DNA from: Escherichia coli
GTDB taxonomy: Bacteria; Pseudomonadota; Gammaproteobacteria; Enterobacterales; Enterobacteriaceae
DNA length: 64,000 bases
Direction: 5' to 3' (one strand)
NCBI RefSeq assembly: GCF_044324785.1
Contig: NZ_CP172127.1
The number at the start of each line of letters is the position of its first letter. Within the stretch, counting starts at the first letter, position 1. Shown one piece after another: positions 5,242 through 61,229 of the stretch. The notes under the pieces are model-generated. The model saw nothing but the letters and a program-made list of their open reading frames with translations. It did no database searches and was not told the origin of the DNA. A program made the translations under genes and the position numbers.

Positions 5242-5597
5242 AAAGTCCTGTCCAGAAAGAAGTCGGCCTCGCAAAAATGAATAAACCCAGTTTCTCTTGC
5301 GCAACAGGTGGAGAAGTCGATACGCAGTATGTAAAAAATGAGGCAATAGATTCACTGGGGAGGTCGCGAGGAGGCGCAATTCTACAAAATTGCGCATTTC
5401 ACTACCAGTCTGGAGTCAGCCCGGATATGAACTGCAACTATTGCAAATAAAGAAATTAAGCTGGAAGGCATCACGCAATGAGGAAGATAGCCGGGTGCTG
5501 ACGGTAAAAAGCAATCGTAAAATCAGCGGCAAGCCGGAAAGGTTCCGGTGAGGCGCAATGTTGCGGGGGCTTAATCCCTGGTGGCATTGGTTGCTGG

Positions 5598-5666
5598 AGA
5601 GAGAAAACCCCCGCACGTTGCAGGTATGCACCTGACAACATCACGGGGGCCATTCTTGAACCTGAA
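5598..5666 (-). ncRNA. rdl: Rdl antisense RNA (type I antitoxin), copy 1
   Basis: Reverse complement of the ldr leader region resembles recalled Rdl RNA (..caagaauggcccccgug..caacgugcggggguuuucuc); ends approximate. Confidence 0.5.
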
Positions 5667-5715
5667 CAACTCAAGAATAGCCGCGAAACGTTGTCATTAC
5701 AACTCAGGCGGCTAT

Positions 5716-5823
5716 ATGACGCTCGCAGAACTGGGCATGGCCTTCTGGCATGATTTAGCGGCTCCGGTCATTGCTGGCATTCTTGCCAGCATGATCGTGA
5801 ACTGGCTGAATAAGCGGAAGTAA
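5716..5823 (+). CDS. ldrD: Ldr small toxic peptide (type I toxin), copy 1
   Basis: 35 aa MTLAELGMAFWHDLAAPVIAGILASMIVNWLNKRK matches recalled LdrD; sits between yhjV and bcsG as in K-12. Confidence 0.85.
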   Translation: MTLAELGMAFWHDLAAPVIAGILASMIVNWLNKRK

Positions 5824-6080
5824 CGTGTCAGACGGGCGTCAGGCTGCCGTAATGGCAAGTTGCGCCCGGATCAGACCGCAGGGATAAAACTCTGCGGCCT
5901 TTTTCGTAAGAAAAATGCAACGGTTGCAAGCGGATAATATTCTGCGGAATGCGCAGCACAGAGTGAAGACGTGACGGATTCCGGAACAGAAAAACAGTCG
6001 TAGAATCAGCGGCAAGCCGGAAAGGTTCCGGTGAGGCGCAATGTTGCGGGGGCTTAATCCCTGGTGGCATTGGTTGCTGG

Positions 6081-6149
6081 AGAGAGAAAACCCCCGCACG
6101 TTGCAGGTATGCACCTGACAACACCACGGGGGCCATTCTTGCATCCAAA
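6081..6149 (-). ncRNA. rdl: Rdl antisense RNA (type I antitoxin), copy 2
   Basis: Same element 483 bp downstream of copy 1 with several substitutions; ends approximate. Confidence 0.45.
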
Positions 6150-6198
6150 CAATACAAGAATAGCCGCGAAACGTTGTCATTACAACAGAGGCGGCTAT

Positions 6199-6306
6199 AT
6201 GACGCTCGCAGAACTGGGCATGGCCTTCTGGCATGATTTAGCGGCTCCGGTCATTGCTGGCATTCTTGCCAGTCTGATCGTGAACTGGCTGAACACGCGG
6301 AAGTAA
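6199..6306 (+). CDS. Ldr small toxic peptide (type I toxin), copy 2
   Basis: 35 aa MTLAELGMAFWHDLAAPVIAGILASLIVNWLNTRK; diverged paralog (M25L, K32T) within the second repeat unit. Confidence 0.8.
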   Translation: MTLAELGMAFWHDLAAPVIAGILASLIVNWLNTRK

Positions 6307-6392
6307 CGTGTCAGACGGGCGTCAGGCTGCCGTAATGGCAATTTGCGCCCGGACCAGGCCGCAGGGGGAAAACTCTGCGGCCTTTTTCGTTC

Positions 6393-8072
6393 TTATTGCG
6401 GGTAAGGTACCCAGTCGCCGCCATTCAGGCGAACGTACGGTTTATCCTGGTATTGAATAACTACTGCATTTGAGTTCTCGGAGACCGGTGCTGTTTGTGG
6501 CAACCCACTGGTGAGTTTTTTCCAGTCAACATTGTCGTCGGAGAAAATCTTGCCATCAAGAACGCGAACCACCAGATCGGAGATAGCCAGGAAGCTGCTC
6601 GGTTGGTCGATGACAATCGGTGCCCCCTGATGTGGTGCCTTCATGCCGAAGAATTTCACCCCAACGGGGACGTCTGTGATAGACGGGCTGGGGATATCAC
6701 GTAGGCCAGATACCTGCATTCTGTCGCCCTTCAGCGCGCCACCGTGTTCCGGCACCACTACCACCATCACTTTACGACCCGATTTCTCCAGTTCAGTAAA
6801 GAAGGCGTCCAGCTCATCAAAGAATTTCTGCGCTCGCGCTTTGTAATCCGCTGTTTTGCTGACGCCCGGATAATGGTTGCCGTCATGCAGTGGAAGCGTG
6901 TTGTAGAACGTGGCACTACGGCTGTTTTTATCTTTTTCGGTAACGTCCAGCCAGCGGTTAAGCACGGCGGTATCGTCATAAACCGGCGAACCATCAAAGC
7001 CCAGCAAAATAACCGGCAGATTTGTTTGATCCATCAATTCGGTCTGCATGCCGCCATTTTCGCGAACTTCTTTCAAAAAACCGCCGAACTGGCCGTTATG
7101 TCCCATCATCAGGTGCTGGGTAAAGCCCAGTTTCGACAGGTTATCAAACAGATAGCAGTCGTTATTTGCCGGTTGATACAGATTAGTGTGCGAAGTCTGC
7201 CCGCAGCTGGCGCGCAGTAAACGGATCGCCGCCGGGCCACTGTAGGAGGTGGCGGAGTTAAAGTTCTTGAACTCAATATCGAAATGCGACCACAGCGGAT
7301 GCGACATCAACCCGGCGGCTTCAATATCCGACCAGGAAAGCGAACAAATATTAATCATCAGTAGTTCAAATGGCTGAGCATCAGCGGGCAGCGAAGACGG
7401 GAAGGTCGATTTACGTTTCGCCTCTGCGTTATAGAAATTATTCAGCCAGGCGTTAAGGTTCGCCGTTGTTGGCGGTGCAGTTTGTGCGGGCATATCACCC
7501 ACTACCGGTGCGCCACCCGTCGCGGCAACGGTTGCCGCTGCGTTACCACCCGTCGTTGTTACAGTGGTCGTCGGTTGACCGGCAGGCCACAAGGAGAAAC
7601 TTGGTCCCGCCAGGGTAAGTACGTTCAGCCATAGCAGAATGGCAACCACAAAAACGGTAATGCGAATCCATTGTGACAGGAATAACCAGGCCACTAATAA
7701 AACAAAAATGGCCCCAATCATCTGCCAGTTAATAAAGCGTGTGACAAGGTCGATTAAATAATCGGTACTGAACCCCGCCACCTGCGAACCCTGGCTCATT
7801 ATGCTTTCCGGGCCAGGCAACCAGGTGTCATGCCAGAACAAAGCAAAGCCGATCGGCAGGGCAATCCAGTGGCGTAAGCGATGCAGGCTGTAGCGCGGAA
7901 TGGGCATCAGCAGAAACGCGGCAAACACCAGATTGAGGAGCGGATGGAAGTTAAGATATCCCGCCCACAACAGGCCGAACTTAACCAGAAAATAGAAGTT
8001 CCAGCCGGAAAGGCCGCGCCAGTATTGCCAGAGGGAAGAAGGCATGGCGGTATTTTGCGTAAATTGAGTCAT
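6393..8072 (-). CDS. bcsG: Cellulose biosynthesis protein BcsG
   Basis: 559 aa membrane protein with Pro/Thr-rich linker; position and length match recalled BcsG (YhjU). Confidence 0.9.
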
Positions 8073-8260
8073 TTTTTGGTTGCCTTGGCTTTTTCCGTGC
8101 GGCGTAACGTCCCGGCCGGTTTAACATAACGAGGTTTAGCAAAGAACAAACGTAAGGTGTCGCGAATGCGTCGCAAAGAGTGCCGCGCCAGATAGCCCAG
8201 CGGGAAAAATATCAGTGCGCAAACGACAATAATTTCAATGATATCGCTGATGGTCATCAT
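8069..8260 (-). CDS. bcsF: Cellulose biosynthesis protein BcsF
   Basis: 63 aa single-TM peptide overlapping bcsG start by 4 bp. Confidence 0.85.
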
Positions 8261-9828
8261 GATGAGCGCTCCACAGCATCATCTAACAGTCGCATTGGTT
8301 CTGGTATTCGTCGCCAGTGGCGACCATCGTGCTCGGCATTAATGACCGGTTTAGAACTTTGCGTTAAAGGCAGCGGCATGCCCCATTGTTCTGGGGCAAG
8401 CAGGCGCATCTGCACCAGCTCGGCACTGATTTGATCATCTTCAAACCAGACCATACGGTTTGAGAAAATGTCGCCAGTCGGCAATGGGAAAATATGATTC
8501 AACGCGGTATCCAGATCGTTAATCCGACAGAATGAGAGAAACAGCACCAGCCGATTACCGCCAATGGTCATGATATCGCCGGTACGGTTAGGGCGACACA
8601 GCGTCAGGGCTTGTTCAACGCGGATACCCGGTACCGGACGTAGGGCAACCAGAACGCCTTTACCGTGGGCAGGTAATAGAGGGTTATTCATCATGTTGTT
8701 GACGGCATTACAGAACACATCCCACTTCTGGAAACCACGCAGTTTGAGCGGCTGGGTCATTGACAGCAAGGTAGTGATATCTTCCGGCACATAGCGACTA
8801 AATTTCTGCCCTTGCACGCTTTCGATCATCGTCAGACAACGGGAGAGTGGCGCATTCCACGGGATAACCATATTTGCACCGCAGGCCAATAACAAACGTT
8901 CATCGGTGGCGCGCAGGCTAGCGGTATTTTCCCGTACGAGGATTTTCATCGCACTACCGCGCTGGCGACGCAGGGTATGAATGCTGCGGGCCAGTGGCTC
9001 GATTTGCGCATTTTGCTGTAAAGAAAAGACCACCGTCGCCGCCTGAGCGGTACGGGCTTCATTGAACAGGACTTCGTTATTGTTGAACAGTTGCCAGTGT
9101 TCCGATAGCGGCGGCGCACCTTCCAGTACAGCAACATTACTCAGAATGCGTTTTTCGTCGCTGCGTGGTTGGATCTCCGCCTCTTCGCTTTGAACTAAGG
9201 TCCAGATACCCTTTTGTTGCTGAACGCTAAGCTGCTGACGGGCGCTGACCCCTTTTTCGTTGCACCAGAAGGCAATATCCAGCAAATGTTGGTCGCCCTG
9301 AAAACGCAAACTGGCAAGACCAAAAAGTGAACGGTATTCCTCAAGCAACAATGAAAATTGTTTATCGTTATTATTTCCGGGATTAATTACCAAAAGCGAA
9401 CAATGGTTTAACCTGCTCCATTTATTCATTTTATCCAACCATGAGCGAAGCCGCTCGGCAGGAATGTTTTGCCATGCGTTATTTGCGCAAACAAGAATAA
9501 AAAGGTAATTATGGGGATCAATAGAACACTGCAAATCACGGGCCAAATAGTATAGACCTTTTTCATGATTTAGCATTGAAAATAATTTTATTTTTTCCGG
9601 CCCTTGAGAATCATCTAATTGAAAGATTTTCGCCGGATCGCTGTCCATGCTAATGACCGCGACGTGTGCGGTTTCAGCCTGGGATGCAATTGTTTGATTC
9701 GCCAGACTGATAGCATCTTCATGGCGATCGACGTTAAACCACCAGACGCCGCCTGCTGGCATATGTCGCAGCTCATCCCATAATGATGAGATACCGATAG
9801 AGAATACAGGGTCCACAATGTCCCTCAT
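8257..9828 (-). CDS. bcsE: Cellulose biosynthesis protein BcsE
   Basis: 523 aa; first gene of bcsEFG, divergent from bcsR; length matches recalled BcsE. Confidence 0.9.
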
Positions 9829-10099
9829 GTCATCATTTTGTCTGATTATCAGTTTACTAGCGAAAGCTAAGAAATAAACCTACCATTGAAATTAAAACTT
9901 ATCAGATTTAGCATGTGAATCAATTTAGCAGGTCACAAGACGTGTGATTTTAGTCTTTTCGTTTTTAACTTTTTTTGTTGCGTAACGGAAAGTCAAAAAG
10001 TGAGCAAATTCCCGTCTCGCCGTAAACAATAAACCGGCGAAATGCTCACGGTTAGAATTGTCTCATGAACGGTACGGTTATTTCATAGGGATCAAGCAA

Positions 10100-10288
10100 A
10101 TGAATAACAATGAACCAGATACTCTGCCTGATCCCGCGATAGGCTATATCTTCCAGAATGATATTTTGGCGTTAAAGCAGGCATTTTCACTGCCTGATAT
10201 TGATTATGCCGATATTTCCCAACGCGAACAGTTGGCCGCGGCATTAAAACGCTGGCCGTTGCTGGCAGAGTTTGCGCAACAAAAGTAG
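10100..10288 (+). CDS. bcsR: Cellulose biosynthesis regulator BcsR
   Basis: 62 aa MNNNEPDTLPD...; start at internal Met of the 76 aa track ORF to match recalled BcsR (YhjR). Confidence 0.8.
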   Translation: MNNNEPDTLPDPAIGYIFQNDILALKQAFSLPDIDYADISQREQLAAALKRWPLLAEFAQQK

Positions 10289-10299
10289 GGGATTGGTGA

Positions 10300-11052
10300 A
10301 TGGCCGTACTGGGATTGCAGGGGGTGCGGGGAGGCGTGGGGACAACAACCATCACCGCCGCATTAGCCTGGTCATTACAAATGTTGGGAGAAAATGTCCT
10401 GGTGGTCGATGCCTGCCCGGACAACTTGTTGCGCCTGTCATTTAACGTTGATTTTACCCACCGTCAGGGCTGGGCCAGAGCTATGCTGGATGGCCAGGAC
10501 TGGCGTGACGCCGGGTTGCGCTACACCTCGCAGCTCGATTTGCTGCCTTTTGGTCAGTTATCCATTGAAGAACAAGAAAATCCACAGCACTGGCAAACCC
10601 GGTTGAGCGATATTTGCTCCGGCTTACAGCAACTAAAATCCAGCGGGCGTTACCAGTGGATTTTAATCGACTTACCGCGTGATGCCTCGCAGATAACCCA
10701 CCAGCTGCTGAGTTTGTGCGATCACTCGCTGTCAATCGTCAATGTGGATGCCAACTGCCATATCCGACTGCATCAGCAAGCGCTGCCGGATGGCGCACAT
10801 ATTTTGATTAATGACTTCCGTATCGGCAGTCAGGTTCAGGACGATATTTACCAGCTTTGGTTGCAAAGCCAGCGCCGATTACTGCCGATGCTCATTCATC
10901 GTGATGAAGCGATGGCTGAATGCCTGGCGGCTAAGCAACCAGTCGGTGAATACCGCAGTGATGCGCTGGCGGCTGAAGAGATACTGACGCTGGCGAACTG
11001 GTGCCTGTTGAACTATTCCGGGCTGAAAACGCCAGTCGGGAGTGCATCATGA
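10300..11052 (+). CDS. bcsQ: Cellulose biosynthesis protein BcsQ (ParA/MinD-like), intact
   Basis: 250 aa with GGVGTTT P-loop-like motif; codon 6 is TTG (Leu), so the frame is open. Confidence 0.9.
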   Translation: MAVLGLQGVRGGVGTTTITAALAWSLQMLGENVLVVDACPDNLLRLSFNVDFTHRQGWARAMLDGQDWRDAGLRYTSQLDLLPFGQLSIEEQENPQHWQTRLSDICSGLQQLKSSGRYQWILIDLPRDASQITHQLLSLCDHSLSIVNVDANCHIRLHQQALPDGAHILINDFRIGSQVQDDIYQLWLQSQRRLLPMLIHRDEAMAECLAAKQPVGEYRSDALAAEEILTLANWCLLNYSGLKTPVGSAS

Positions 11053-13667
11053 GTATCCTGACCCGGTGGTTGCTTATCCCGCCGGTCAACGCGCGGCTTA
11101 TCGGGCGTTATCGCGATTATCGTCGTCACGGCGCGTCGGCTTTCAGCGCGACGCTAGGCTGTTTTTGGTTGATCCTGGCCTGGATTTTTATTCCGCTGGA
11201 GCACCCGCGCTGGCAGCGTATTCGCGCAGAACATAAAAACCTGTATCCGCATATCAACGCCTCGCGTCCGCGTCCGCTGGACCCGGTCCGTTATCTCATT
11301 CAAACATGCTGGTTACTGATCGGTACATCGCGCAAAGAAACGCCGAAACCGCGCAGGCGGACATTTTCAGGTCTGCAGAATATTCGTGGACGTTACCATC
11401 AATGGATGAACGAGCTGCCTGAGCGCGTTAGCCATAAAACACAGCATCTCGATGAGAAAAAAGAACTCGGCCATTTGAGCGCAGGGGCGCGGCGGTTGAT
11501 CCTCGGTATCATCGTCACCTTCTCGCTGATTCTGGCGTTAATCTGCGTTACCCAGCCGTTTAACCCGCTGGCGCAGTTTATCTTCCTGATGCTGCTGTGG
11601 GGTGTAGCGCTGATCGTACGGCGGATGCCGGGGCGCTTCTCGGCGCTAATGTTGATTGTGCTGTCGCTGACCGTTTCTTGCCGTTATATCTGGTGGCGCT
11701 ACACCTCTACGCTGAACTGGGACGATCCTGTCAGCCTGGTGTGCGGGCTTATTCTGCTGTTCGCCGAAACGTACGCGTGGATTGTGCTGGTGCTCGGTTA
11801 CTTCCAGGTAGTATGGCCGCTGAATCGTCAGCCGGTGCCATTGCCGAAAGATATGTCGCTGTGGCCGTCGGTGGATATCTTTGTCCCGACTTACAACGAA
11901 GATCTCAACGTGGTGAAAAATACCATTTACGCCTCGCTGGGTATCGACTGGCCGAAAGACAAACTGAACATCTGGATCCTCGATGACGGCGGCAGGGAAG
12001 AGTTTCGCCAGTTTGCGCAAAACGTGGGGGTGAAATATATCGCCCGCACCACTCATGAACATGCGAAAGCGGGCAACATCAACAATGCGCTGAAATATGC
12101 CAAAGGCGAGTTCGTGTCGATTTTCGACTGCGACCACGTACCAACGCGATCGTTCCTGCAAATGACCATGGGCTGGTTCCTGAAAGAGAAACAGCTGGCG
12201 ATGATGCAGACTCCACACCACTTCTTCTCACCGGACCCGTTTGAACGCAACCTGGGGCGTTTTCGTAAAACACCGAACGAAGGCACGCTGTTCTATGGTC
12301 TGGTGCAGGATGGCAACGATATGTGGGACGCCACTTTCTTCTGCGGTTCCTGTGCGGTGATTCGCCGTAAGCCGCTGGATGAAATTGGCGGCATTGCTGT
12401 CGAAACTGTGACTGAAGATGCGCATACTTCTCTGCGTTTGCACCGTCGTGGCTATACCTCCGCGTATATGCGTATTCCGCAGGCGGCGGGGCTGGCGACC
12501 GAAAGTCTGTCGGCGCATATCGGTCAGCGTATTCGCTGGGCGCGCGGGATGGTGCAAATCTTCCGTCTCGATAACCCGCTCACCGGTAAAGGGCTGAAGT
12601 TTGCTCAGCGGCTGTGCTACGTCAACGCCATGTTCCACTTCTTGTCGGGCATTCCACGGCTGATCTTCCTGACTGCGCCGCTGGCGTTCCTGCTGCTTCA
12701 TGCCTACATCATCTATGCGCCAGCGTTGATGATCGCCCTGTTCGTGCTGCCGCATATGATCCATGCCAGCCTGACCAACTCCAAGATCCAGGGCAAATAT
12801 CGCCACTCTTTCTGGAGTGAAATCTACGAAACGGTGCTGGCGTGGTATATCGCACCACCGACGCTGGTGGCGCTGATTAACCCTCACAAAGGCAAATTTA
12901 ACGTCACCGCCAAAGGTGGACTGGTGGAAGAAGAGTACGTCGACTGGGTGATCTCGCGGCCCTACATCTTCCTTGTTCTGCTCAACCTGGTGGGCGTTGC
13001 GGTAGGCATCTGGCGCTACTTCTATGGCCCGCCAACCGAGATGCTCACTGTGGTCGTCAGTATGGTGTGGGTATTCTACAACCTGATTGTTCTTGGCGGC
13101 GCAGTTGCGGTATCGGTAGAAAGCAAACAGGTGCGCCGATCGCACCGCGTGGAGATGACGATGCCCGCGGCAATTGCCCGCGAAGATGGTCACCTCTTCT
13201 CGTGTACCGTTCAGGATTTCTCCGACGGTGGTTTGGGGATCAAGATCAACGGTCAGGCGCAGATTCTGGAAGGGCAGAAAGTGAATCTGTTGCTTAAACG
13301 CGGTCAGCAGGAATACGTCTTCCCGACCCAGGTGGCGCGCGTGATGGGTAATGAAGTTGGGTTGAAATTAATGCCGCTCACCACCCAGCAACATATCGAT
13401 TTTGTGCAGTGTACGTTTGCCCGTGCGGATACATGGGCGCTCTGGCAGGACAGCTATCCGGAAGATAAGCCGCTGGAAAGTCTGCTGGATATTCTGAAGC
13501 TCGGCTTCCGTGGCTACCGCCATCTGGCGGAGTTTGCGCCTTCTTCGGTGAAGGGCATATTCCGTGTGCTGACTTCTCTGGTTTCCTGGGTTGTATCGTT
13601 TATTCCGCGCCGCCCGGAGCGGAGCGAAACGGCACAACCATCGGATCAGGCTTTGGCTCAACAATGA
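11049..13667 (+). CDS. bcsA: Cellulose synthase catalytic subunit BcsA
   Basis: 872 aa from MSILTRW; glycosyltransferase and PilZ regions (QRIRWARG); 4-bp overlap with bcsQ. Confidence 0.92.
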   Translation: MSILTRWLLIPPVNARLIGRYRDYRRHGASAFSATLGCFWLILAWIFIPLEHPRWQRIRAEHKNLYPHINASRPRPLDPVRYLIQTCWLLIGTSRKETPKPRRRTFSGLQNIRGRYHQWMNELPERVSHKTQHLDEKKELGHLSAGARRLILGIIVTFSLILALICVTQPFNPLAQFIFLMLLWGVALIVRRMPGRFSALMLIVLSLTVSCRYIWWRYTSTLNWDDPVSLVCGLILLFAETYAWIVLVLGYFQVVWPLNRQPVPLPKDMSLWPSVDIFVPTYNEDLNVVKNTIYASLGIDWPKDKLNIWILDDGGREEFRQFAQNVGVKYIARTTHEHAKAGNINNALKYAKGEFVSIFDCDHVPTRSFLQMTMGWFLKEKQLAMMQTPHHFFSPDPFERNLGRFRKTPNEGTLFYGLVQDGNDMWDATFFCGSCAVIRRKPLDEIGGIAVETVTEDAHTSLRLHRRGYTSAYMRIPQAAGLATESLSAHIGQRIRWARGMVQIFRLDNPLTGKGLKFAQRLCYVNAMFHFLSGIPRLIFLTAPLAFLLLHAYIIYAPALMIALFVLPHMIHASLTNSKIQGKYRHSFWSEIYETVLAWYIAPPTLVALINPHKGKFNVTAKGGLVEEEYVDWVISRPYIFLVLLNLVGVAVGIWRYFYGPPTEMLTVVVSMVWVFYNLIVLGGAVAVSVESKQVRRSHRVEMTMPAAIAREDGHLFSCTVQDFSDGGLGIKINGQAQILEGQKVNLLLKRGQQEYVFPTQVARVMGNEVGLKLMPLTTQQHIDFVQCTFARADTWALWQDSYPEDKPLESLLDILKLGFRGYRHLAEFAPSSVKGIFRVLTSLVSWVVSFIPRRPERSETAQPSDQALAQQ

Positions 13668-13677
13668 TGATAACGCG

Positions 13678-16017
13678 ATGAAAAGAAAACTATTCTGGAT
13701 TTGTGCAGTGGCTATGGGGATGAGTGCGTTCCCCTCTTTCATGACGCAGGCGACGCCAGCAACGCAACCACTGATCAATGCTGAGCCAGCTGTAGCCGCC
13801 CAGACGGAACAAAATCCGCAGGTGGGGCAAGTGATGCCGGGCGTGCAGGGCGCTGATGCGCCAGTCGTGGCGCAGAACGGTCCTTCGCGTGATGTGAAGC
13901 TGACCTTTGCGCAAATTGCGCCGCCGCCGGGCAGCATGGTGCTACGTGGCATTAACCCGAACGGCAGCATTGAGTTTGGTATGCGCAGCGATGAAGTGGT
14001 GACGAAGGCGATGCTCAACCTCGAATACACGCCATCGCCATCGTTACTGCCTGTCCAGTCGCAGTTAAAGGTTTATCTCAATGATGAACTGATGGGCGTG
14101 CTGCCAGTGACCAAAGAACAGTTGGGTAAAAAAACACTGGCGCAAATGCCCATTAACCCACTGTTTATTACCGACTTCAACCGTGTGCGGCTGGAGTTTG
14201 TCGGCCATTATCAGGACGTGTGCGAAAACCCGGCCAGCACCACGCTTTGGCTGGATGTTGGGCGGAGCAGTGGACTGGATCTGACCTATCAGACCCTGAA
14301 TGTGAAGAATGACCTGTCACACTTCCCGGTGCCATTCTTTGACCCGCGTGATAACCGCACCAACACCTTGCCGATGGTCTTTGCGGGTGCGCCGGATGTT
14401 GGGCTGCAACAAGCATCTGCCATTGTCGCCTCGTGGTTTGGTTCGCGTTCTGGCTGGCGTGGGCAGAACTTCCCGGTGCTCTATAACCAACTGCCGGATC
14501 GCAATGCCATTGTCTTTGCAACCAACGACAAACGGCCGGACTTCCTGCGCGATCATCCGGCGGTAAAAGCCCCGGTGATTGAGATGATCAACCATCCGCA
14601 GAATCCTTACGTCAAACTGCTGGTGGTGTTTGGTCGTGACGACAAAGACCTGTTGCAGGCAGCGAAAGGTATCGCTCAGGGTAACATTCTGTTCCGTGGT
14701 GAAAGCGTGGTAGTGAATGAAGTGAAACCGCTGCTACCGCGTAAGCCGTACGATGCGCCGAACTGGGTGCGTACCGATCGTCCGGTCACCTTTGGTGAAC
14801 TGAAAACCTATGAAGAACAGTTACAATCCAGCGGTCTTGAGCCAGCAGCGATTAACGTTTCGCTAAACCTGCCGCCGGATCTCTACCTGATGCGCAGTAC
14901 CGGCATTGATATGGATATCAACTATCGCTACACCATGCCGCCGGTGAAAGACAGTTCGCGGATGGATATCAGCCTGAATAACCAGTTCCTGCAATCCTTC
15001 AACCTGAGCAGTAAACAGGAGGCGAACCGCCTGCTGCTGCGTATTCCGGTATTACAAGGTTTGCTGGATGGCAAAACGGATGTCTCTATTCCGGCGCTGA
15101 AACTGGGCGCGACCAACCAGTTGCGGTTCGACTTTGAGTATATGAACCCGATGCCGGGCGGTTCGGTGGATAACTGTATTACCTTCCAGCCGGTGCAGAA
15201 TCATGTGGTGATTGGTGACGACTCCACCATCGACTTCTCGAAGTATTACCACTTCATCCCGATGCCGGATCTACGCGCCTTTGCTAACGCGGGCTTCCCG
15301 TTCAGCCGGATGGCGGATCTGTCACAAACCATCACCGTGATGCCGAAAGCGCCTCACGAAGCACAGATGGAAACCTTGCTGAATACCGTTGGCTTTATCG
15401 GTGCGCAGACGGGCTTCCCGGCGATTAACCTGACGGTGACCGATGATGGCAGCACCATTCAGGGCAAAGATGCCGACATCATGATCGTCGGTGGTATCCC
15501 GGACAAACTGAAAGACGATAAGCAGATCGACCTGTTGGTGCAGGCGACCGAAAGCTGGGTGAAAACGCCGATGCGCCAGACCCTGTTCCCCGGCATTGTA
15601 CCGGATGAGAGCGATCGCGCGGCAGAAACTCAATCAACGCTGACCTCTTCCGGTGCGATGGCAGCGGTGATTGGCTTCCAGTCGCCGTATAACGACCAGC
15701 GTAGCGTGATTGCGCTGCTGGCAGATAGCCCGCGCGGTTATGAAATGCTTAACGATGCGGTGAACGATAGCGGCAAACGCGCCACCATGTTCGGTTCGGT
15801 CGCGGTGATCCGCGAGTCCGGTATCAATAGCCTGCGTGTTGGCGACGTCTATTACGTTGGCCATCTGCCGTGGTTCGAACGCTTATGGTATGCCCTGGCA
15901 AACCATCCGATTCTGCTGGCGGTGCTGGCGGCAATCAGCGTCGTGCTGCTGGCATGGGTACTGTGGCGTCTGCTGCGTATTATCAGCCGTCGTCGTCTTA
16001 ACCCGGATAACGAGTAA
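13678..16017 (+). CDS. bcsB: Cellulose synthase periplasmic subunit BcsB
   Basis: 779 aa from MKRKLFWICAV with signal peptide and C-terminal TM anchor. Confidence 0.92.
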   Translation: MKRKLFWICAVAMGMSAFPSFMTQATPATQPLINAEPAVAAQTEQNPQVGQVMPGVQGADAPVVAQNGPSRDVKLTFAQIAPPPGSMVLRGINPNGSIEFGMRSDEVVTKAMLNLEYTPSPSLLPVQSQLKVYLNDELMGVLPVTKEQLGKKTLAQMPINPLFITDFNRVRLEFVGHYQDVCENPASTTLWLDVGRSSGLDLTYQTLNVKNDLSHFPVPFFDPRDNRTNTLPMVFAGAPDVGLQQASAIVASWFGSRSGWRGQNFPVLYNQLPDRNAIVFATNDKRPDFLRDHPAVKAPVIEMINHPQNPYVKLLVVFGRDDKDLLQAAKGIAQGNILFRGESVVVNEVKPLLPRKPYDAPNWVRTDRPVTFGELKTYEEQLQSSGLEPAAINVSLNLPPDLYLMRSTGIDMDINYRYTMPPVKDSSRMDISLNNQFLQSFNLSSKQEANRLLLRIPVLQGLLDGKTDVSIPALKLGATNQLRFDFEYMNPMPGGSVDNCITFQPVQNHVVIGDDSTIDFSKYYHFIPMPDLRAFANAGFPFSRMADLSQTITVMPKAPHEAQMETLLNTVGFIGAQTGFPAINLTVTDDGSTIQGKDADIMIVGGIPDKLKDDKQIDLLVQATESWVKTPMRQTLFPGIVPDESDRAAETQSTLTSSGAMAAVIGFQSPYNDQRSVIALLADSPRGYEMLNDAVNDSGKRATMFGSVAVIRESGINSLRVGDVYYVGHLPWFERLWYALANHPILLAVLAAISVVLLAWVLWRLLRIISRRRLNPDNE

Positions 16018-16023: not shown

Positions 16024-17130
16024 ATGAATGTGTTGCGTAGTGGACTCGTGACGATGCTGCTGCTGGCTGCCTTTAGTGTTCAGGCAGCCTGCAACTGGCC
16101 TGCCTGGGAGCAGTTCAAAAAGGATTACATCAGTCAGGAAGGGCGCGTCATTGACCCAAGTGACGCGCGTAAAATCACCACCTCTGAAGGGCAAAGTTAC
16201 GGCATGTTCTTTGCCCTGGCGGCTAACGACCGTGCAGCTTTCGATAATATTCTCGACTGGACGCAGAACAATCTCGCTCAGGGTTCTTTAAAAGAACGTT
16301 TGCCCGCCTGGCTGTGGGGCAAGAAAGAGAACAGTAAGTGGGAAGTGCTGGACAGCAATTCGGCCTCCGATGGTGATGTCTGGATGGCCTGGTCGTTGCT
16401 GGAGGCGGGGCGTTTGTGGAAAGAGCAGCGTTATACCGACATCGGCAGCGCGTTGTTAAAACGTATTGCGCGGGAGGAAGTGGTGACGGTGCCTGGGCTG
16501 GGTTCCATGTTGTTGCCGGGCAAAGTGGGATTTGCAGAGGATAACAGCTGGCGTTTTAACCCCAGCTACCTGCCGCCGACGCTGGCGCAGTATTTCACCC
16601 GCTTTGGCGCGCCGTGGACTACGCTGCGCGAAACCAATCAACGTTTATTGCTGGAAACCGCCCCGAAAGGCTTTTCGCCAGACTGGGTGCGCTATGAGAA
16701 AGACAAAGGCTGGCAGCTAAAAGCCGAAAAAACATTGATCAGCAGCTACGACGCGATCCGCGTTTACATGTGGGTAGGCATGATGCCTGACAGCGATCCG
16801 CAAAAAGCGCGGATGCTCAACCGGTTTAAACCGATGGCGACATTCACCGAGAAAAACGGCTATCCGCCAGAAAAAGTGGATGTGGCTACGGGGAAAGCGC
16901 AGGGTAAAGGACCGGTCGGTTTTTCTGCCGCCATGCTGCCCTTTTTACAAAACCGCGATGCGCAGGCCGTTCAGCGCCAGCGCGTGGCCGATAACTTTCC
17001 CGGCAGCGATGCCTATTACAACTATGTGCTGACCCTGTTTGGACAAGGCTGGGATCAACACCGTTTCCGCTTCTCGACAAAAGGTGAGTTATTACCTGAC
17101 TGGGGCCAGGAATGCGCAAATTCACACTAA
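16024..17130 (+). CDS. bcsZ: Endo-1,4-beta-glucanase BcsZ (GH8)
   Basis: 368 aa with signal peptide; immediately after bcsB. Confidence 0.9.
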
Positions 17131-20100
17131 ACATATTCACGCTTTCCCTCGGGCTGGCCGTCATGCCGATGGTCGAGGCAGCACCAACCGCTCAGCAACA
17201 GTTGCTGGAGCAAGTTCGGTTAGGCGAAGCGACCCATCGTGAAGACCTGGTGCAACAGTCGTTGTATCGGCTGGAACTTATTGATCCGAATAACCCGGAC
17301 GTCGTTGCCGCCCGTTTCCGTTCTCTGTTACGTCAGGGCGATATTGATGGCGCGCAAAAACAGCTCGATCGGCTGTCGCAGTTAGCGCCGAGTTCAAATG
17401 CGTATAAATCGTCGCGGACTACGATGCTGCTTTCCACGCCGGATGGTCGTCAGGCACTGCAACAGGCAAGATTGCAGGCGACGACTGGTCATGCAGAAGA
17501 AGCTGTGGCGAGTTACAACAAACTGTTCAACGGTGCGCCGCCGGAAGGTGACATTGCTGTCGAGTACTGGAGTACGGTGGCGAAAATTCCGGCTCGCCGT
17601 GGCGAAGCGATTAATCAGCTAAAACGCATTAATGCGGATACGCCGGGCAATACGGGCCTGCAAAACAATCTGGCGCTATTGCTGTTTAGTAGCGATCGCC
17701 GTGACGAAGGTTTTGCCGTCCTGGAACAGATGGCGAAATCGAACGCCGGGCGCGAAGGGGCCTCTAAAATCTGGTACGGGCAGATTAAAGACATGCCCGT
17801 CAGCGATGCCAGTGTGTCGGCGCTGAAAAAATATCTCTCGATATTTAGCGATGGCGATAGCGTGGCGGCTGCACAATCGCAACTGGCAGAACAGCAAAAA
17901 CAGCTGGCCGACCCTGCTTTCCGCGCTCGTGCGCAAGGTTTAGCGGCGGTGGACTCTGGTATGGCGGGTAAAGCCATTCCCGAACTACAACAGGCGGTGC
18001 GGGCGAACCCGAAAGACAGTGAGGCTCTGGGGGCGCTGGGCCAGGCGTATTCTCAGAAAGGCGATCGCGCCAATGCGGTGGCGAATCTGGAAAAAGCCCT
18101 CGCCCTGGATCCGCACAGCAGCAACAACGACAAATGGAACAGTCTCCTGAAAGTAAACCGCTACTGGCTGGCGATCCAGCAGGGCGATGCTGCGCTGAAA
18201 GCCAATAATCCTGACCGGGCAGAACGCCTGTTCCAGCAGGCGCGTAATGTCGATAACACCGACAGCTATGCAGTGCTGGGGCTGGGCGATGTGGCGATGG
18301 CGCGCAAAGATTATCCCGCCGCTGAACGCTATTACCAGCAGACGCTGCGTATGGACAGTAGCAACACTAACGCCGTGCGCGGGCTGGCGAAGATTTACCG
18401 CCAGCAGTCGCCAGAAAAAGCCGAAGCGTTTATCGCCTCGCTCTCTACCAGTCAGCGGCGCAGCATTGATGATATCGCACGCAGCCTGCAAAACGACCGT
18501 CTGGCACAGCAGGCAGAGGCACTGGAAAAGCAGGGCAAATGGGTGCAGGCGGCAGCACTTCAGCGGCAACGACTGGCGCTGGACCCCGGCAGTGTATGGA
18601 TTACTTACCGACTTTCACAGGATCTCTGGCAGGCCGGACAACGCAGCCAGGCTGATACATTAATGCGCAATCTGGCACAGCAGAAGCCGAACGACCCGGA
18701 GCAGGTTTACGCTTACGGGCTGTATCTCTCTGGCCATGACCAGGACAGAGCGGCGCTGGCGCATATCAACAGCCTGCCGCGCGCGCAGTGGAACAGCAAT
18801 ATTCAGGAACTGGTTAATCGCCTGCAAAGCGATCAGGTGCTGGAAACCGCTAATCGCCTGCGAGAAAGCGGCAAAGAGGCAGAAGCGGAAGCGATGCTGC
18901 GCCAGCAACCGCCTTCCTCGCGTATTGACCTCACGCTGGCTGACTGGGCGCAGCAGCGACGTGATTACACCGCCGCCCGCGCTGCTTATCAGAACGTTTT
19001 GACGCGGGAGCCAACTAACGCCGATGCCATTCTTGGTCTGACGGAAGTGGATATTGCTGCCGGTGACAAAGCGGCGGCACGTAGCCAGCTGGCGAAGCTG
19101 CCTGCCACCAATAACGCCTCGCTGAACACTCAGCGGCGCGTGGCGCTGGCACAGGCGCAGCTTGGCGATACCGCAGCGGCGCAGCAGACATTTAATCAGT
19201 TGATCCCGCAGGCAAAATCTCAGCCACCGTCGATGGAAAGCGCGATGGTGCTGCGCGACGGTGCGAAGTTTGAAGCACAGGCGGGCGATCCAAAGCAGGC
19301 GCTGGAAACCTACAAAGACGCCATGGTCGCATCCGGTGTGACCACGACGCGTCCGCAGGATAACGACACCTTTACCCGGCTGACCCGTAACGACGAGAAA
19401 GATGACTGGCTGAAACGCGGCGTGCGCAGCGATGCAGCGGACCTCTATCGCCAGCAGGATCTTAACGTCACCCTCGAGCACGATTACTGGGGTTCGAGCG
19501 GCACCGGTGGTTACTCCGATCTGAAAGCGCACACCACTATGTTGCAGGTGGACGCGCCGTATTCTGACGGGCGGATGTTCTTTCGCAGTGATTTCGTCAA
19601 TATGAACGTCGGCAGTTTCTCCACTAATGCCGATGGTAAATGGGATGACAACTGGGGCACCTGTACATTACAGGATTGTAGCGGCAACCGCAGCCAGTCG
19701 GATTCCGGTGCCAGCGTGGCGGTCGGTTGGCGAAATGACGTCTGGAGCTGGGATATCGGCACCACGCCGATGGGCTTCAACGTGGTGGATGTGGTCGGCG
19801 GCATCAGTTACAGCGATGATATCGGGCCGCTGGGTTACACCGTTAACGCCCACCGTCGGCCCATCTCCAGTTCTTTGCTGGCCTTTGGCGGGCAAAAAGA
19901 CTCCCCGAGCAATACCGGGAAAAAATGGGGCGGCGTGCGTGCCGACGGCGTGGGGCTAAGCCTGAGCTACGATAAAGGTGAAGCAAACGGCGTCTGGGCA
20001 TCGCTTAGCGGTGATCAGTTAACCGGTAAAAATGTCGAAGATAACTGGCGCGTGCGCTGGATGACGGGCTATTACTATAAGGTCATCAACCAGAACAATC

Positions 20101-20585
20101 GCCGCGTCACCATCGGCCTGAACAACATGATCTGGCATTACGACAAAGACCTGAGTGGTTACTCACTCGGTCAGGGCGGTTACTACAGCCCGCAGGAATA
20201 CCTGTCGTTTGCCATACCGGTGATGTGGCGGGAGCGCACGGAAAACTGGTCGTGGGAGCTGGGGGCGTCTGGCTCGTGGTCGCATTCACGCACCAAAACC
20301 ATGCCGCGTTATCCGCTGATGAATCTGATCCCGACCGACTGGCAGGAAGAAGCTGCGCGGCAATCGAACGATGGCGGCAGCAGTCAGGGCTTTGGCTACA
20401 CGGCGCGGGCATTACTTGAGCGACGTGTTACTTCCAACTGGTTTGTCGGCACGGCAATTGATATCCAGCAGGCGAAAGATTACGCACCCAGCCATTTCCT
20501 GCTCTACGTACGTTATTCCGCCGCCGGATGGCAGGGTGACATGGATTTACCGCCGCAGCCGCTGATACCTTACGCCGACTGGTAA
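17112..20585 (+). CDS. bcsC: Cellulose synthase outer membrane/TPR subunit BcsC
   Basis: 1157 aa, N-terminal signal peptide, TPR-like Ala-rich repeats and C-terminal beta-barrel-like region. Confidence 0.92.
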
Positions 20586-20666: not shown

Positions 20667-22655
20667 TTGCGCGTAAGTCGCTCGTTAACAATCAAGCAGA
20701 TGGCAATGGTGGCAGCCGTTGTCCTGGTGTTCGTTTTTATTTTTTGCACCGTTTTGCTGTTCCATCTGGTCCAGCAGAATCGCTATAACACGGCTACGCA
20801 ACTGGAAAGCATTGCTCGCTCTGTCCGCGAACCCTTATCTTCAGCTATTTTGAAAGGCGATATTCCCGAAGCGGAAGCTATTCTTGCCAGCATTAAACCG
20901 GCAGGCGTGGTCAGCCGTGCCGATGTGGTGCTGCCCAACCAGTTCCAGGCGCTGCGTAAAAGTTTTATTCCAGAGCGTCCGGTGCCGGTAATGGTTACTC
21001 GCCTGTTTGAGCTACCGGTGCAAATCTCGCTGGGCGTTTACTCGCTCGAACGTCCGGCAAATCCGCAGCCAATTGCCTATCTGGTGCTACAGGCGGATTC
21101 CTTCCGTATGTATAAGTTCGTGATGAGCACCCTCTCAACGTTAGTGACCATTTACTTACTTTTGTCGCTAATATTGACTGTGGCGATTAGCTGGTGCATT
21201 AACCGACTGATTTTGCATCCGTTACGCAATATTGCTCGTGAACTTAACGCCATCCCAGCCCAGGAGCTTGTTGGTCACCAACTGGCATTACCACGTCTGC
21301 ATCAGGACGATGAAATCGGTATGTTGGTGCGTAGTTACAACCTCAACCAGCAATTGCTGCAGCGCCATTATGAAGAACAGAACGAAAACGCGATGCGCTT
21401 CCCGGTGTCGGATTTGCCGAACAAAGCCTTGCTGATGGAGATGCTGGAGCAGGTGGTGGCGCGTAAACAAACTACCGCGCTGATGATCATCACCTGTGAA
21501 ACCCTGCGTGATACTGCGGGTGTGCTGAAAGAGGCGCAAAGAGAAATTCTGCTGCTGACGCTGGTGGAAAAACTCAAATCGGTACTGTCGCCACGTATGA
21601 TCCTCGCGCAGATTAGTGGTTATGACTTTGCTGTCATTGCCAATGGTGTACAGGAACCGTGGCACGCAATCACTTTAGGTCAGCAAGTGCTCACTATCAT
21701 GAGCGAGCGCCTGCCGATTGAACGTATTCAACTCCGTCCGCACTGTAGCATTGGCGTGGCGATGTTCTACGGCGATCTCACCGCCGAACAGCTTTACAGT
21801 CGCGCTATTTCTGCGGCATTTACCGCTCGCCATAAAGGCAAGAATCAGATTCAGTTCTTTGATCCGCAGCAGATGGAAGCCGCCCAACAGCGGTTGACGG
21901 AAGAGAGCGATATCCTTAATGCACTGGAAAATCATCAGTTTGCGATTTGGTTACAGCCACAGGTCGAGATGACCAGCGGTAAACTGGTCAGTGCGGAAGT
22001 GTTACTGCGTATCCAGCAACCGGATGGCAGTTGGGATCTGCCGGATGGCTTAATCGATCGCATTGAGTGCTGTGGGCTGATGGTTACCGTCGGTCACTGG
22101 GTGCTGGAAGAGTCCTGTCGACTGCTGGCTGCCTGGCAAGAGCGCGGCATTATGCTGCCCTTGTCGGTAAACCTCTCAGCGCTGCAACTGATGCACCCGA
22201 ATATGGTAGCGGATATGCTGGAACTGTTAACCCGCTATCGCATTCAGCCGGGAACACTGATTCTGGAAGTGACAGAAAGCCGACGTATTGACGACCCTCA
22301 TGCTGCGGTGGCAATCCTCCGTCCGTTGCGTAATGCCGGAGTTCGGGTGGCGCTGGATGATTTCGGCATGGGCTATGCGGGGCTGCGTCAGCTGCAGCAT
22401 ATGAAATCGTTGCCAATCGACGTACTGAAAATCGACAAAATGTTTGTTGAAGGCTTGCCGGAAGATAGCAGCATGATTGCTGCAATTATCATGTTGGCGC
22501 AAAGCCTGAACTTACAAATGATTGCCGAAGGCGTGGAGACTGAAGCACAACGCGACTGGCTGGCAAAAGCGGGCGTTGGTATTGCCCAGGGCTTCCTTTT
22601 TGCTCGCCCACTCCCTATTGAAATCTTCGAAGAGAGTTACCTGGAAGAAAAGTAG
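20667..22655 (+). CDS. pdeK: c-di-GMP phosphodiesterase PdeK (HAMP-GGDEF-EAL)
   Basis: 662 aa; N-terminal TM helix, degenerate GGDEF region and EAL domain; apparent TTG start after a GGGGGGAG run (ATG alternatives exist downstream). Confidence 0.85.
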
Positions 22656-25840: not shown

Positions 25841-26043
25841 TAAATAACCCGGTAGCGTTTCTTCTGCGCTGCCGGGATTAACGGTAATAAATTAGTTACC
25901 GTGATATAACCGCAGATATTTTTCCGGGCACGGCGGTAGCGCGCAGATAACCATTCATTATTAAAATAAACTTACCGTAGAGTGGGTTTAATTATTTATT
26001 AGCTGAATAAATTATACCGGTGCCTCCTGGAAGGAGTGAGTTT

Positions 26044-26469
26044 ATGCTTGTGTTAAAATCACAATCGATTGGATTCAGGATTTCCACAACTTATTTATCT
26101 TTAACATATACAGAGTCTGATGGCGTCAACATTAAAGTAGATGCTCTGGAGTTAATATCAAAAGAGAAAGATTATGTTCAAATTGAACTGGTCTTCACTA
26201 CAGTTGCTGAAGTTAAGTGTGCTACCGTCAATTTTTATGAAGCCAACTATAACAATATTGTTATTAAGAAGGTTGATGGTGAAAATCTGGACTCCGGTAT
26301 ATATCAAGTAATGAATTCTGTACCGCTTGAAGAAAAAGAGAAATTATATGACCCTAAAAAACGGTTGAAGTTAAAACATTATATTATAGCAGGTTATGAT
26401 AGTTATGTTGAGATTTTAGCTACTGGTTTTAGCTGTATACGATGCCAGGCAATAGATGGTGTTAAATAA
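26044..26469 (+). CDS. Hypothetical protein, island ORF1 (141 aa)
   Basis: ATG 7 nt after AGGAG (26032-26036); no signal peptide; stop overlaps ORF2 start. Confidence 0.6.
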   Translation: MLVLKSQSIGFRISTTYLSLTYTESDGVNIKVDALELISKEKDYVQIELVFTTVAEVKCATVNFYEANYNNIVIKKVDGENLDSGIYQVMNSVPLEEKEKLYDPKKRLKLKHYIIAGYDSYVEILATGFSCIRCQAIDGVK

Positions 26470-26723
26470 TGGCCTATCATATAGAAATATTGAAAATTGA
26501 AGAAACTGATAAAGTAGTAAAATATGAATTTGGACCTACATCTTCTGACTATTGTAGATCTGATTACGGCGAGTTCGTGATAGATAAAAGAACGGGTGAG
26601 ATGACATTAGTCAGAATGGTTAAAAACGATTCGGCTAATAAATTTTATTTGCGAGCGAGTTTTAAGATTCTGACCTGTTGGCGAAAGGGCTATTTGCCAA
26701 AAAATGGGGAATGGGCTTCTTAA
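26469..26723 (+). CDS. Hypothetical protein, island ORF2 (84 aa)
   Basis: TAATG stop/start overlap with ORF1; no recognisable motif. Confidence 0.55.
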   Translation: MAYHIEILKIEETDKVVKYEFGPTSSDYCRSDYGEFVIDKRTGEMTLVRMVKNDSANKFYLRASFKILTCWRKGYLPKNGEWAS

Positions 26724-26790
26724 TAAGTAACTTTGCAGAATAAGTGAATTTTCCCATTTTTGGGGGCAGTCGTTGATTCTTACACAGTTT

Positions 26791-27039
26791 ATGTTATGGG
26801 TGCAGAAAAATACTGGGCATAATATTAGATGCAATACCAATACATTATCAACTAGCATAGTTATTGATTTTGATAATGATATCTATATTGCCAGGTTTAC
26901 AGTTTGGGATGATTTAAGTTGTATGTCAGAAGTTATATGCGTTGAAACGGGGGATTATAAATTAAATCAGCGAAATGAATTCCATACTTATGATTCGCTA
27001 AGGAAGATTTTTGATAATTTCATGGGAATTATACAATAA
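26791..27039 (+). CDS. Hypothetical protein, island ORF3 (about 82 aa)
   Basis: Track ORF starts at TTG 26773; first ATG at 26791; no clear SD, weakest of the five. Confidence 0.4.
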   Translation: MLWVQKNTGHNIRCNTNTLSTSIVIDFDNDIYIARFTVWDDLSCMSEVICVETGDYKLNQRNEFHTYDSLRKIFDNFMGIIQ

Positions 27040-27064
27040 ATTGCGCTAATAAAATAAAAACATT

Positions 27065-27556
27065 ATGTTTAAATTGATAGCAATCAAAGAAACTCCTTTG
27101 GGAGTAAAAGATGACGAAGATCTCTCGGTATCAGAAGCCATATACTCAACCTATACTGATTATACAAACGATATCCTTATGGTGTTTGATAAAGTCGTTT
27201 TATGTTTAGATAGAAAAGGAGATATTAGCGATATCTATAATGATATCGTCAATATATTTGAGCAGATAGAACTGGGTACTAAACAGTTTTTTATGTGTTT
27301 TTTATCCAGTACATTCACTACACGTTGGGAATTTGAGCATAAAAGCCCAGATACTATCAATATAACCGCTTATTGGTTTGACGTAAGATATCTTTATGGT
27401 ATCAACTCGATTATTAAAACTTCCACAATTGAAATCCCAGTATCTGAATTTAAAATGCAATGGGGAAATATTATAAAACCAATAAAAAAAGATATTCTTT
27501 CGTTAGGTTATGATGAAACGTTAGTAAATTTTTCTTTTTTTAACAATTTTAATTGA
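27065..27556 (+). CDS. Hypothetical protein, island ORF4 (163 aa)
   Basis: Same strand 25 nt after ORF3; acidic N-terminus; AT-rich codon usage. Confidence 0.55.
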   Translation: MFKLIAIKETPLGVKDDEDLSVSEAIYSTYTDYTNDILMVFDKVVLCLDRKGDISDIYNDIVNIFEQIELGTKQFFMCFLSSTFTTRWEFEHKSPDTINITAYWFDVRYLYGINSIIKTSTIEIPVSEFKMQWGNIIKPIKKDILSLGYDETLVNFSFFNNFN

Positions 27557-27629
27557 TGAGTTATTAGTCTGGTTTATCTAAAAATGTAGGTGGTTTTTTT
27601 GCGACATCAACGGATTTAAAGGAGTATAA

Positions 27630-28214
27630 ATGCGTAACAAAAAACGCATACTATTCTTGCTAACAGTCATTCTTTGCTTAACCGGTCTTTATTCCTGCAA
27701 CAAAATTTTTCTCTTACTCTGGGATGCCAATAATATTTATGTCAGTACAAAAAATAATATCGATAAAGACAAGGTAAAAATAGAATTCGGTATCAGCGTC
27801 AACACGATCAACCGAGAAACGGATGCCGAATTATTTGCTGACAGAGATAAGTATGCAGTGCTCTTCGATGGTAGCCTGAAAAATAAGATGATAAACGAAT
27901 ACGGAGAAAATGATTTTTTAATTACCTACGATAACCGCTGCTATTTATCATTTCGTCAATTTAAAACCAATCGTCGTCATCAACATGACTATTATTTTGA
28001 CTTCTTTAACAACAATGGGAATGTCTTCGTCACGGTCGAAATTAAAGGTGAGAACCCGCTTAAATTTACGCGTAGTTTGAATGATATGCGTCAGCAGTTT
28101 ATTTCAAATCATCAGCACCGCTCGGTTCGTCCCTGCAAGATGATTAACGGAGAACGAATATCTACCCGTTCTCCGTCAAAAACCATTATTCCGGCATCGC
28201 CTCACGCGGGATAA
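27630..28214 (+). CDS. Hypothetical predicted lipoprotein, island ORF5 (194 aa)
   Basis: GGAG 6 nt upstream of ATG; N-terminus MRNKKRILFLLTVILCLTGLYSC resembles a lipoprotein signal peptide with imperfect lipobox; 3' end overlaps kdgK 3' end by 29 bp. Confidence 0.55.
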   Translation: MRNKKRILFLLTVILCLTGLYSCNKIFLLLWDANNIYVSTKNNIDKDKVKIEFGISVNTINRETDAELFADRDKYAVLFDGSLKNKMINEYGENDFLITYDNRCYLSFRQFKTNRRHQHDYYFDFFNNNGNVFVTVEIKGENPLKFTRSLNDMRQQFISNHQHRSVRPCKMINGERISTRSPSKTIIPASPHAG

Positions 28215-43522: not shown

Positions 43523-43539
43523 AGTTTTACTCAGAGATA

Positions 43540-43644
43540 AAAAAAACCCGGCATAGGGGACCGGGAAGAGGATAGTCTGCCGTCTCCAGACTAATAAACC
43601 GTTATAACACTCCCTGTTGGCACGGGAAACTTTGTGCTCTCAGT
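43540..43644 (-). ncRNA. gadY: GadY small regulatory RNA
   Basis: Minus-strand sequence actgagagcacaaagtttcccgtgccaacaggg...cccctatgccgggtttttttt matches recalled 105-nt GadY; terminator hairpin plus U-run at the 3' end; convergent with gadX. Confidence 0.8.
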
Positions 43645-43890
43645 AAGTTAAATATAACTTTTACTGGAAATAAGATCAGCCATTTTTTTATAAACATAAG
43701 CTATACGCTGTGCGAAAATATATTCGTGCTGCATTTACTTATTATCAATTAACTGTTATGCAAAACTACTTTGTGGATAAATTTTGGTCCTACCAAATCT
43801 GGCAGTTTTTGCGCTAAGAAACAGTCTGGCATCATTTCATTAGTATACTGAAATTGAAATAATCGCAGTAATGAAATATAAGGGATAGTC

Positions 43891-49277: not shown

Positions 49278-49615
49278 TTTAGTCCCTGAAAATTCTTGAG
49301 AAATAACGGTTCTTTAAATTGCGCGCGAGGAGAGATATGAGGGATTTACAGACCAGCGGCATAGTGGGGTTGTCAGCCAGTAAGGTGGGATACAGGCATA
49401 GTGATCGACATGGTGAGGTCAACGACAAAAAAAATGTTGCCGTTCTGCCAACAGTTCCTGCCAGCATTCGGGCAACGAAGGGTTCTACTGGTGGATACAC
49501 ATACCAGGGGAATAAAGTCGTTTTAACCTCTCCTTTAGTAATCACCGGGGGTAATGAAATCAGCATCTGCATCCCTCGTCATGCCAGCCATCAATTTCAG
49601 TTGCTTATGTCCTGA

Positions 49616-53254: not shown

Positions 53255-53273
53255 TCTGTATAGTTATTTATTC

Positions 53274-53306
53274 GCAGGAGTACCGGAGCGGTACTCCTGT
53301 TGGTTT
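53274..53306. terminator. Bidirectional terminator between convergent yhiD and chuV
   Basis: ggagtaccg gagc ggtactcc hairpin followed by tgttggtttt. Confidence 0.6.
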
Positions 53307-54076
53307 TAATGATCGAGGACGATCAGTGGTGAATGGTTGGCAGGATCTTTAAGTACGGTAATATCCGCGCCGTAGAGCATTGTCAGTGCCTGCTGTGTCA
53401 ATACATCCTGCGGTTTACCATTTGCGATAACCTTTCCTTTTTGCATTAATACAATACGGTCTGCATAACGTGCGGCAAGATTTAGATCGTGCAATACGCA
53501 GCAAACATTGAATTGCCGTTCGTGAACTAACTGGCGTAATAAACGGAACAAGTGCTGCTGATGGTGAATATCCAGCGCCGAAGTTGGTTCATCAAGAAAT
53601 AACCATTTCGGTGAGGGAGTAGGTTCCCAGAGTTGCACCAGCAGGCGCGCTAATTGCACGCGCTGTTGTTCACCACCGGATAATTGCCGATAGTCGCGGT
53701 TTGCTAACGCCTGACAGTCACATAACGCCATTATTTGTGCTGTTTCATTATCCTTATTACCAGTGCGATGCGGATGCCGCCCCATCTGGATAACTTCTTG
53801 TACGCTGAATGGAAACGCCATGTGGCTATTTTGACGCATCACGGCCCGGTGTTTCGCCAGTTCAGTAATCGACCATTTATTTAATGGCTTATTAAACAAC
53901 CGACATTCGCCGCTATCAGGTTGAAGATAGCCGGTTAACTGGCGAAGCAGCGTAGATTTTCCCGCACCATTAGGGCCGAGAATGGCAACAATTTCCCCAC
54001 CGGGAAAAGTCAGCGAGACATTATCAGTCAGGCGTCGCCCATGAAGGCTATAAACCAGATTCTGGGCGCTGATCAT
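53306..54076 (-). CDS. chuV: Heme ABC transporter ATP-binding protein ChuV/HmuV
   Basis: 256 aa from [13 protein letters not shown]; Walker [10 protein letters not shown], signature LSGGEQQR; 4-bp overlap with chuU. Confidence 0.85.
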
Positions 54077-55065: not shown

Positions 55066-55113
55066 GCAAAACTCCGTTACGACATTACGGCGCGGACATG
55101 CCGCGCCGGGGGA

Positions 55114-56231: not shown

Positions 56232-56243
56232 AAATCACTCCTG

Positions 56244-57581: not shown

Positions 57582-57600
57582 TCGTCTGATTTAAATCCAT

Positions 57601-58455: not shown

Positions 58456-58540
58456 GGCTGAAATACATAACGTTAGTGGGGAAAAAAGAAACGGCCTGGT
58501 GATGATCCTTGGCATAATATGAGAACTCTTATCAAATTGA

Positions 58541-61181: not shown

Positions 61182-61229
61182 TCATCTGCCCCGATATTTC
61201 GGGGCATTTATCTGGAAGGAAGAGAGACA

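Follow-up and report, generated by a model that had tools for sequence, protein, structure and literature searches.

Does bcsQ in this strain of Escherichia coli carry the premature stop that abolishes cellulose production in K-12, and what does the state of the gene imply for the strain's capacity to make the polymer? In K-12 the lesion is a single-nucleotide polymorphism at codon 6 (TTG/TAG, 17T>A), and Serra et al. restored cellulose in W3110 by repairing it (PMC5944007). Strain AR3110 derives from W3110 by a TAG-to-TTG exchange at codon 6, and is thereby cellulose-proficient (PMC7397504, PMC5014196). An initial annotation of the 64-kb stretch of DNA analysed here (the window) had stated that the K-12 stop abolishes cellulose; these papers, which name 17T>A as the cause and report that its repair restores production, bear that statement out. 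The same annotation described the stop as polar on bcsA, and this part stands as one of two published explanations: the stop may act through polarity on neighbouring genes, or through the loss of BcsQ function itself (PMC5944007). PMC5944007 cites Le Quere & Ghigo 2009, a paper whose title counts BcsQ among the essential components of the apparatus.

The bcsQ frame in the window begins with ATG, continues through 250 open codons and ends with TGA. Its 5' end reads ATG GCC GTA CTG GGA TTG, and its stop codon (11050-11052) shares 4 bp with the ATG of bcsA (11049-11051). The TTG at codon 6, the 250-aa open frame and the 4-bp overlap had all been described in the initial annotation, and sequence and translation agree with it on each. 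The annotation of strain N3, which is the best match to the whole window among 5,426 complete E. coli genomes (99.35-99.5%; the next best is 98.6%), places bcsQ and bcsA at the same coordinates as the window. The order bcsR, bcsQ, bcsA positions the gene as in the bcs operon.

The encoded protein is BcsQ. It matched the CBP_BcsQ family (PF06564) with E = 5e-115 and 383.3 bits (cut-off 21.3), residues 1-236 covering profile positions 1-234 of 234; weaker matches to the AAA_31, CbiA and MinD-type families spanned residues 5-215. Alignment with the BcsQ chain of PDB entry 6YBU gave 246/250 identical residues (98.4%), and the P-loop GVRGGVGTTT (residues 8-17), which lies in frame just past codon 6, is identical in that protein. 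Because the 753-bp gene is also 98.5% identical in DNA to K-12 bcsQ, it is not a chance open reading frame. Two antisense frames over bcsQ, at 10092-10424 and 10481-10735 on the minus strand, were considered and rejected as by-products of the coding frame without support of their own.

We then compared the gene with its K-12 counterpart. In MG1655 (NC_000913.3), bcsQ (b3534) carries a pseudogene annotation: codon 6 is TAG, and the translation ends after five residues (MAVLG*). The initial annotation had stated that K-12 has TAG here and had proposed to check it by this alignment. The window has TTG at 10315-10317, and thus lacks the 17T>A change that defines the K-12-type pseudogene. Across the first 60 codons, only one synonymous change separates the two sequences besides codon 6; across the full gene there are about ten further differences, of which two are non-synonymous (A114S and A145S) and about nine synonymous. 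The gene, its length and its operon context are common to the window, K-12 b3534 and AR3110. At codon 6 the window shares the repaired TTG of AR3110 and differs from the TAG of K-12, and at residues 114 and 145 it has serine where K-12 has alanine. The BcsQ of the cellulose producer E. coli 1094, represented in PDB entries 6YBU, 6YAR and 9FNN (BcsRQ and the Bcs macrocomplex), is likewise 250 aa long with Leu6, and its gene also sits between bcsR and bcsA; the window protein differs from it in having S114 rather than A, S145 rather than A, D172 rather than N and A249 rather than K.

To place these alleles within the species, exact 61-mers centred on codon 6 were queried against the 5,426 complete genomes. 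The TTG 61-mer of the window had an exact match in 3,551 of them, and the K-12 TAG 61-mer in 349. Sixty-four of these 349 matches were listed, and all were laboratory strains or K-12 derivatives (among them MG1655, DH5alpha, C600, J53 and DH1), so that no natural isolate with TAG at codon 6 appeared among the 64. Some 1,340 further genomes match neither 61-mer, because they differ at another position; the two examples opened, Nissle and O157:H7 Xuzhou21, both have TTG at codon 6 together with a SNP at codon 9. TTG is the ancestral allele and the norm of the species; TAG is the exception, a lesion confined to the K-12 laboratory lineage rather than a noteworthy polymorphism of the species. This agrees with the published placement of the codon 6 mutation in the common ancestor of K-12 (PMC5944007). 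The call of an intact bcsQ is correct but ordinary: it describes the wild-type state of a well-studied locus, which was already known.

The rest of the locus was examined as well (Table 1). In a gene-by-gene comparison with K-12, bcsRQABZC, bcsEFG and pdeK all had K-12 lengths and conserved start codons, with no internal stops or frameshifts, and each of the nine Bcs products matched its own Pfam family across essentially the full profile. The earlier statement that bcsRQABZC and bcsEFG are intact is upheld by these lengths and profile matches, and no bcs frameshift was found. The locus has the nine bcs genes, each full length, in the two divergent operons of the type II arrangement. The same held beyond the locus: 29 of the 29 other K-12 genes tested in the window were full length, including the c-di-GMP phosphodiesterase gene pdeH, and a search of the bcs genes and these 29 for hidden defects in starts, lengths or internal stops found none.

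Substitutions relative to K-12 were as follows. BcsA is identical to the N3 protein and differs from that of K-12 only by M41L, A93T and A105T; because all three precede residue 106, its Glycos_transf_2 (277-447), Cellulose_synt (446-664) and PilZ (694-790) regions are unchanged. By PDB alignment, BcsB shares >99% identity with its counterparts in the solved Bcs structures from E. coli. BcsC has 14 substitutions and no stops, BcsG six conservative substitutions and PdeK three, each at a length equal to that in K-12. PdeK interacts with the cellulose synthase and with DgcC (PMC7397504). The divergent bcsE-bcsR region is identical to that of N3. Against K-12 it shows three substitutions and an A-run that is one base shorter; a rearranged control region was considered and ruled out, these three SNPs and one 1-bp indel being the only changes. 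The A-run (10095-10102) lies between the bcsR Shine-Dalgarno region and the ATG and reads AAGCAAATG in the window and AAGCAAAATG in K-12; the shorter form is common to N3 and several other genomes.

Table 1. Positions of the bcs locus and of other features in the 64-kb window.
Feature	Position	Strand	Description
rdlD RNAs	5602-5667, 6085-6150	-	Rfam RF01813
ldr ORFs	5716-5823, 6199-6306	+	
bcsG	6393-8072	-	559 aa; cellulose-modifying phosphoethanolamine transferase; PF11658, E = 1.5e-235
bcsF	8069-8260	-	63 aa; PF11120, E = 1.5e-34; K-12 length
bcsE	8257-9828	-	523 aa; c-di-GMP-binding protein; PF10995, E = 4e-227; K-12 length
bcsE/bcsR divergent intergenic region	9829-10099		promoter-bearing
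bcsR (yhjR)	10100-10288	+	62 aa, intact; PF10945, E = 2.8e-17; V23L relative to K-12
bcsQ	10300-11052	+	250 aa, intact; MinD/ParA-like (SIMIBI) ATPase, cellulose secretion system
bcsQ codon 6	10315-10317	+	TTG (Leu); TAG in K-12; T rather than A at 10316
ATGA overlap of bcsQ stop and bcsA start	11049-11052	+	probable translational-coupling site
bcsA	11049-13667	+	872 aa; catalytic cellulose synthase (GT2); PilZ domain at the C-terminus, a c-di-GMP receptor; GT2, Cellulose_synt and PilZ Pfam matches
bcsB	13678-16017	+	779 aa; periplasmic subunit; PF03170, E = 1e-223; rare N560H and P636L
bcsZ	16024-17130	+	368 aa; GH8 endoglucanase; PF01270, E = 1e-160; K-12 length
bcsC	17112-20585	+	1157 aa; TPR and outer-membrane channel; BCSC_C and TPR Pfam matches
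pdeK (yhjK/hmsP)	20667-22655	+	662 aa, intact; c-di-GMP phosphodiesterase adjoining the bcs operon
GadY	43534-43647	-	RF00122; between gadX and gadW, as in K-12
ES205	49427-49498	-	RF02754; between gadE and mdtE, at the K-12 gadF position
shuA/chuA 5' UTR thermoregulator	59170-59201		RF02597

We hold with high confidence that the bcsQ of the window is the ordinary wild-type allele, and that the locus around it, made up of bcsRQABZC and the divergently oriented bcsEFG, is a complete cellulose secretion locus of the E. coli type (type II). No observation speaks against this genotype. With the ancestral TTG at codon 6, ribosomes would translate all 250 codons and yield the MinD/ParA-like ATPase BcsQ. 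This protein would pair with BcsR and, together with BcsE and BcsF, would make up, on BcsA-BcsB, the portion of the Bcs macrocomplex that faces the cytoplasm, an arrangement taken from the molecule names of the solved BcsRQ and macrocomplex PDB entries. For the E. coli BcsQ with which it shares 98.4% identity, the PDB entries and Le Quere & Ghigo 2009 (cited in PMC5944007) provide evidence that it dimerises in an ATP-dependent manner, binds BcsR and is needed to secrete cellulose; the same may be expected of the window protein. TTG at codon 6 would also allow translation to reach the ATGA junction and so permit coupling into bcsA. In such a case bcsA would be translationally coupled, and the long untranslated tract that follows the K-12 stop would be missing, so that polarity would be avoided.

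Natural loss of bcs function is widespread in some lineages. Some affected strains were found in 74 of 76 sequence types, and the lesions include a BcsA frameshift at residue 186 in ST95, BcsQ Q178*, and nonsense mutations of BcsQ and BcsZ in the ST10 complex (PMC10881479). These fall in the same locus, but none is present in the window, where every bcs open reading frame is full length. Two further cases came to light in our comparisons. In strain 7/2, bcsQ (961-1713 of the retrieved region) has W120* and bcsC is shortened (3,084 rather than 3,474 bp); both defects are absent from the window. In O157:H7 Xuzhou21, bcsQ is flagged with an 'internal stop' despite TTG at codon 6, and it also carries V9G. 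The bcsQ pseudogenes of 7/2 and Xuzhou21 are unrelated to the K-12 lesion and are consistent with the recurrent loss of bcs genes (PMC10881479). Because such loss is widespread, as that survey and these two strains illustrate, an intact bcs set is common but not universal.

Whether the strain makes cellulose is a separate matter. The initial annotation considered it competent for cellulose synthesis, and the structural half of that claim fares well: the structural gene set for phosphoethanolamine-cellulose is complete. Actual production would hinge on regulators encoded outside the window, and intact bcs frames failed to predict calcofluor binding in two published strains (PMC5944007). The locus could thus be intact in a strain that is cellulose-negative, or only conditionally positive, through lesions in or low expression of csgD, dgcC, rpoS or mlrA, or through temperature. 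BL21 and H10407 have no bcs nonsense mutation and are nevertheless calcofluor-negative, and among six phylogroup A strains E. coli 1094 alone bound calcofluor on LB (PMC5944007). DgcC is specifically required to activate the cellulose synthase (PMC7397504), and the gene inventory of the 64-kb window contains none of csgD, dgcC/adrA, rpoS and mlrA. Against such silencing, no lesion was observed, pdeK and pdeH in the window are normal, and the bcsE-bcsR region is near-identical in K-12, a strain that makes cellulose once repaired (AR3110; PMC7397504). We regard silencing from outside the locus as plausible, if on balance unlikely.

A missense change could also inactivate the machinery despite its open frames, the candidates being N560H and P636L in BcsB, A114S and A145S in BcsQ, or one of the 14 changes in BcsC; PMC5944007 speculates that missense changes lie behind the negative phenotypes of BL21 and H10407. 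In bcsB, the 61-mers surrounding codons 560 (15355-15357) and 636 (15583-15585) had no exact match in the 5,426 complete genomes, and the protein encoded by the nearest bcsB haplotype, that of strain 7/2, differs by N560H and P636L alone. Site conservation was assessed in 91 orthologues of 85-99% identity. Residue 560 was N in 89 of them, a count in favour of a harmful N560H, but D and T (one orthologue each) are tolerated there; site 636 is unconstrained, because P, T, A or D occupies it among these close orthologues. Moreover, both substitutions in BcsQ replace Ala by Ser and also occur in strain N3, and the GT2 and PilZ regions of BcsA are without change. N560H and P636L are probably harmless, to judge from this conservation, and we think it very unlikely that any of the listed substitutions disables the system. 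Slimmer still is the chance that the strain belongs to a rarely sequenced recombinant lineage whose BcsB N560H/P636L might quantitatively alter the assembly or output of the cellulose synthase; the sequence comparisons offer no hint of such an effect. An error of sequencing or assembly that hides a true stop behind the TTG has a negligible probability and nothing in its favour: 3,551 independent complete genomes contain the same 61-mer, and the 1.1-kb bcsR-bcsQ region is 100% identical to that of strain N3. An ordinary wild-type allele in a complete locus is thus the reading that we retain.

The relation to N3, a strain from a human rectal swab, is uneven along the window. Divergence is patchy, with anywhere between 0 and 36 differences in a 2-kb bin, and bcsR-bcsQ are 100% identical to N3 where bcsB and bcsC are not; the pattern suggests mosaicism by recombination relative to N3. 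Two genes, yhjG and treF (window 32197 and 37965), are intact in the window, and their products share 99-100% identity with those of K-12. In N3 both are annotated as pseudogenes, frameshifted by single-base deletions, which may stem from errors in that assembly.

Several other features of the window were noted, most of them different from K-12. At 5506-6390 there are two tandem copies of an Ldr/Rdl type I toxin-antitoxin system, where K-12 has one (ldrD/rdlD); the copies lie within a direct repeat of ~400 bp that is 94.8% identical. Between yhjJ and kdgK lies an islet of 2.3 kb (25841-28193) that K-12 lacks; it holds five small same-strand open reading frames. Its single family match is to the TriTu immunity protein PF24689 (26773-27039, E = 8e-20), and the islet may represent a series of orphan immunity genes. 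Segments of it occur in 200 of the 5,426 genomes, EAEC 042 being one of them, and N3 alone has the full version. Relative to K-12, a chu/shu haem-uptake locus (~53260-62320) is inserted between yhiD and dctR, with chuA, chuS, chuT/shuT, hutW, hutX, chuY, shuU and a gene for an ATP-binding protein. The presence of chuA presumably places the strain outside phylogroups A and B1. The acid-fitness island has the sRNAs GadY and ES205 as K-12 does, and its genes gadE-mdtEF-gadWX-gadA-hdeABD are all intact.

The intact bcsQ has little import beyond annotation and raises no new question. Because bcs loss of function is frequent in some pathogenic lineages (PMC10881479), a complete bcs set is nonetheless mildly informative: this is a strain without the K-12 domestication lesion and with a complete cellulose/pEtN-cellulose gene set, and as such it is of use for work on biofilms.
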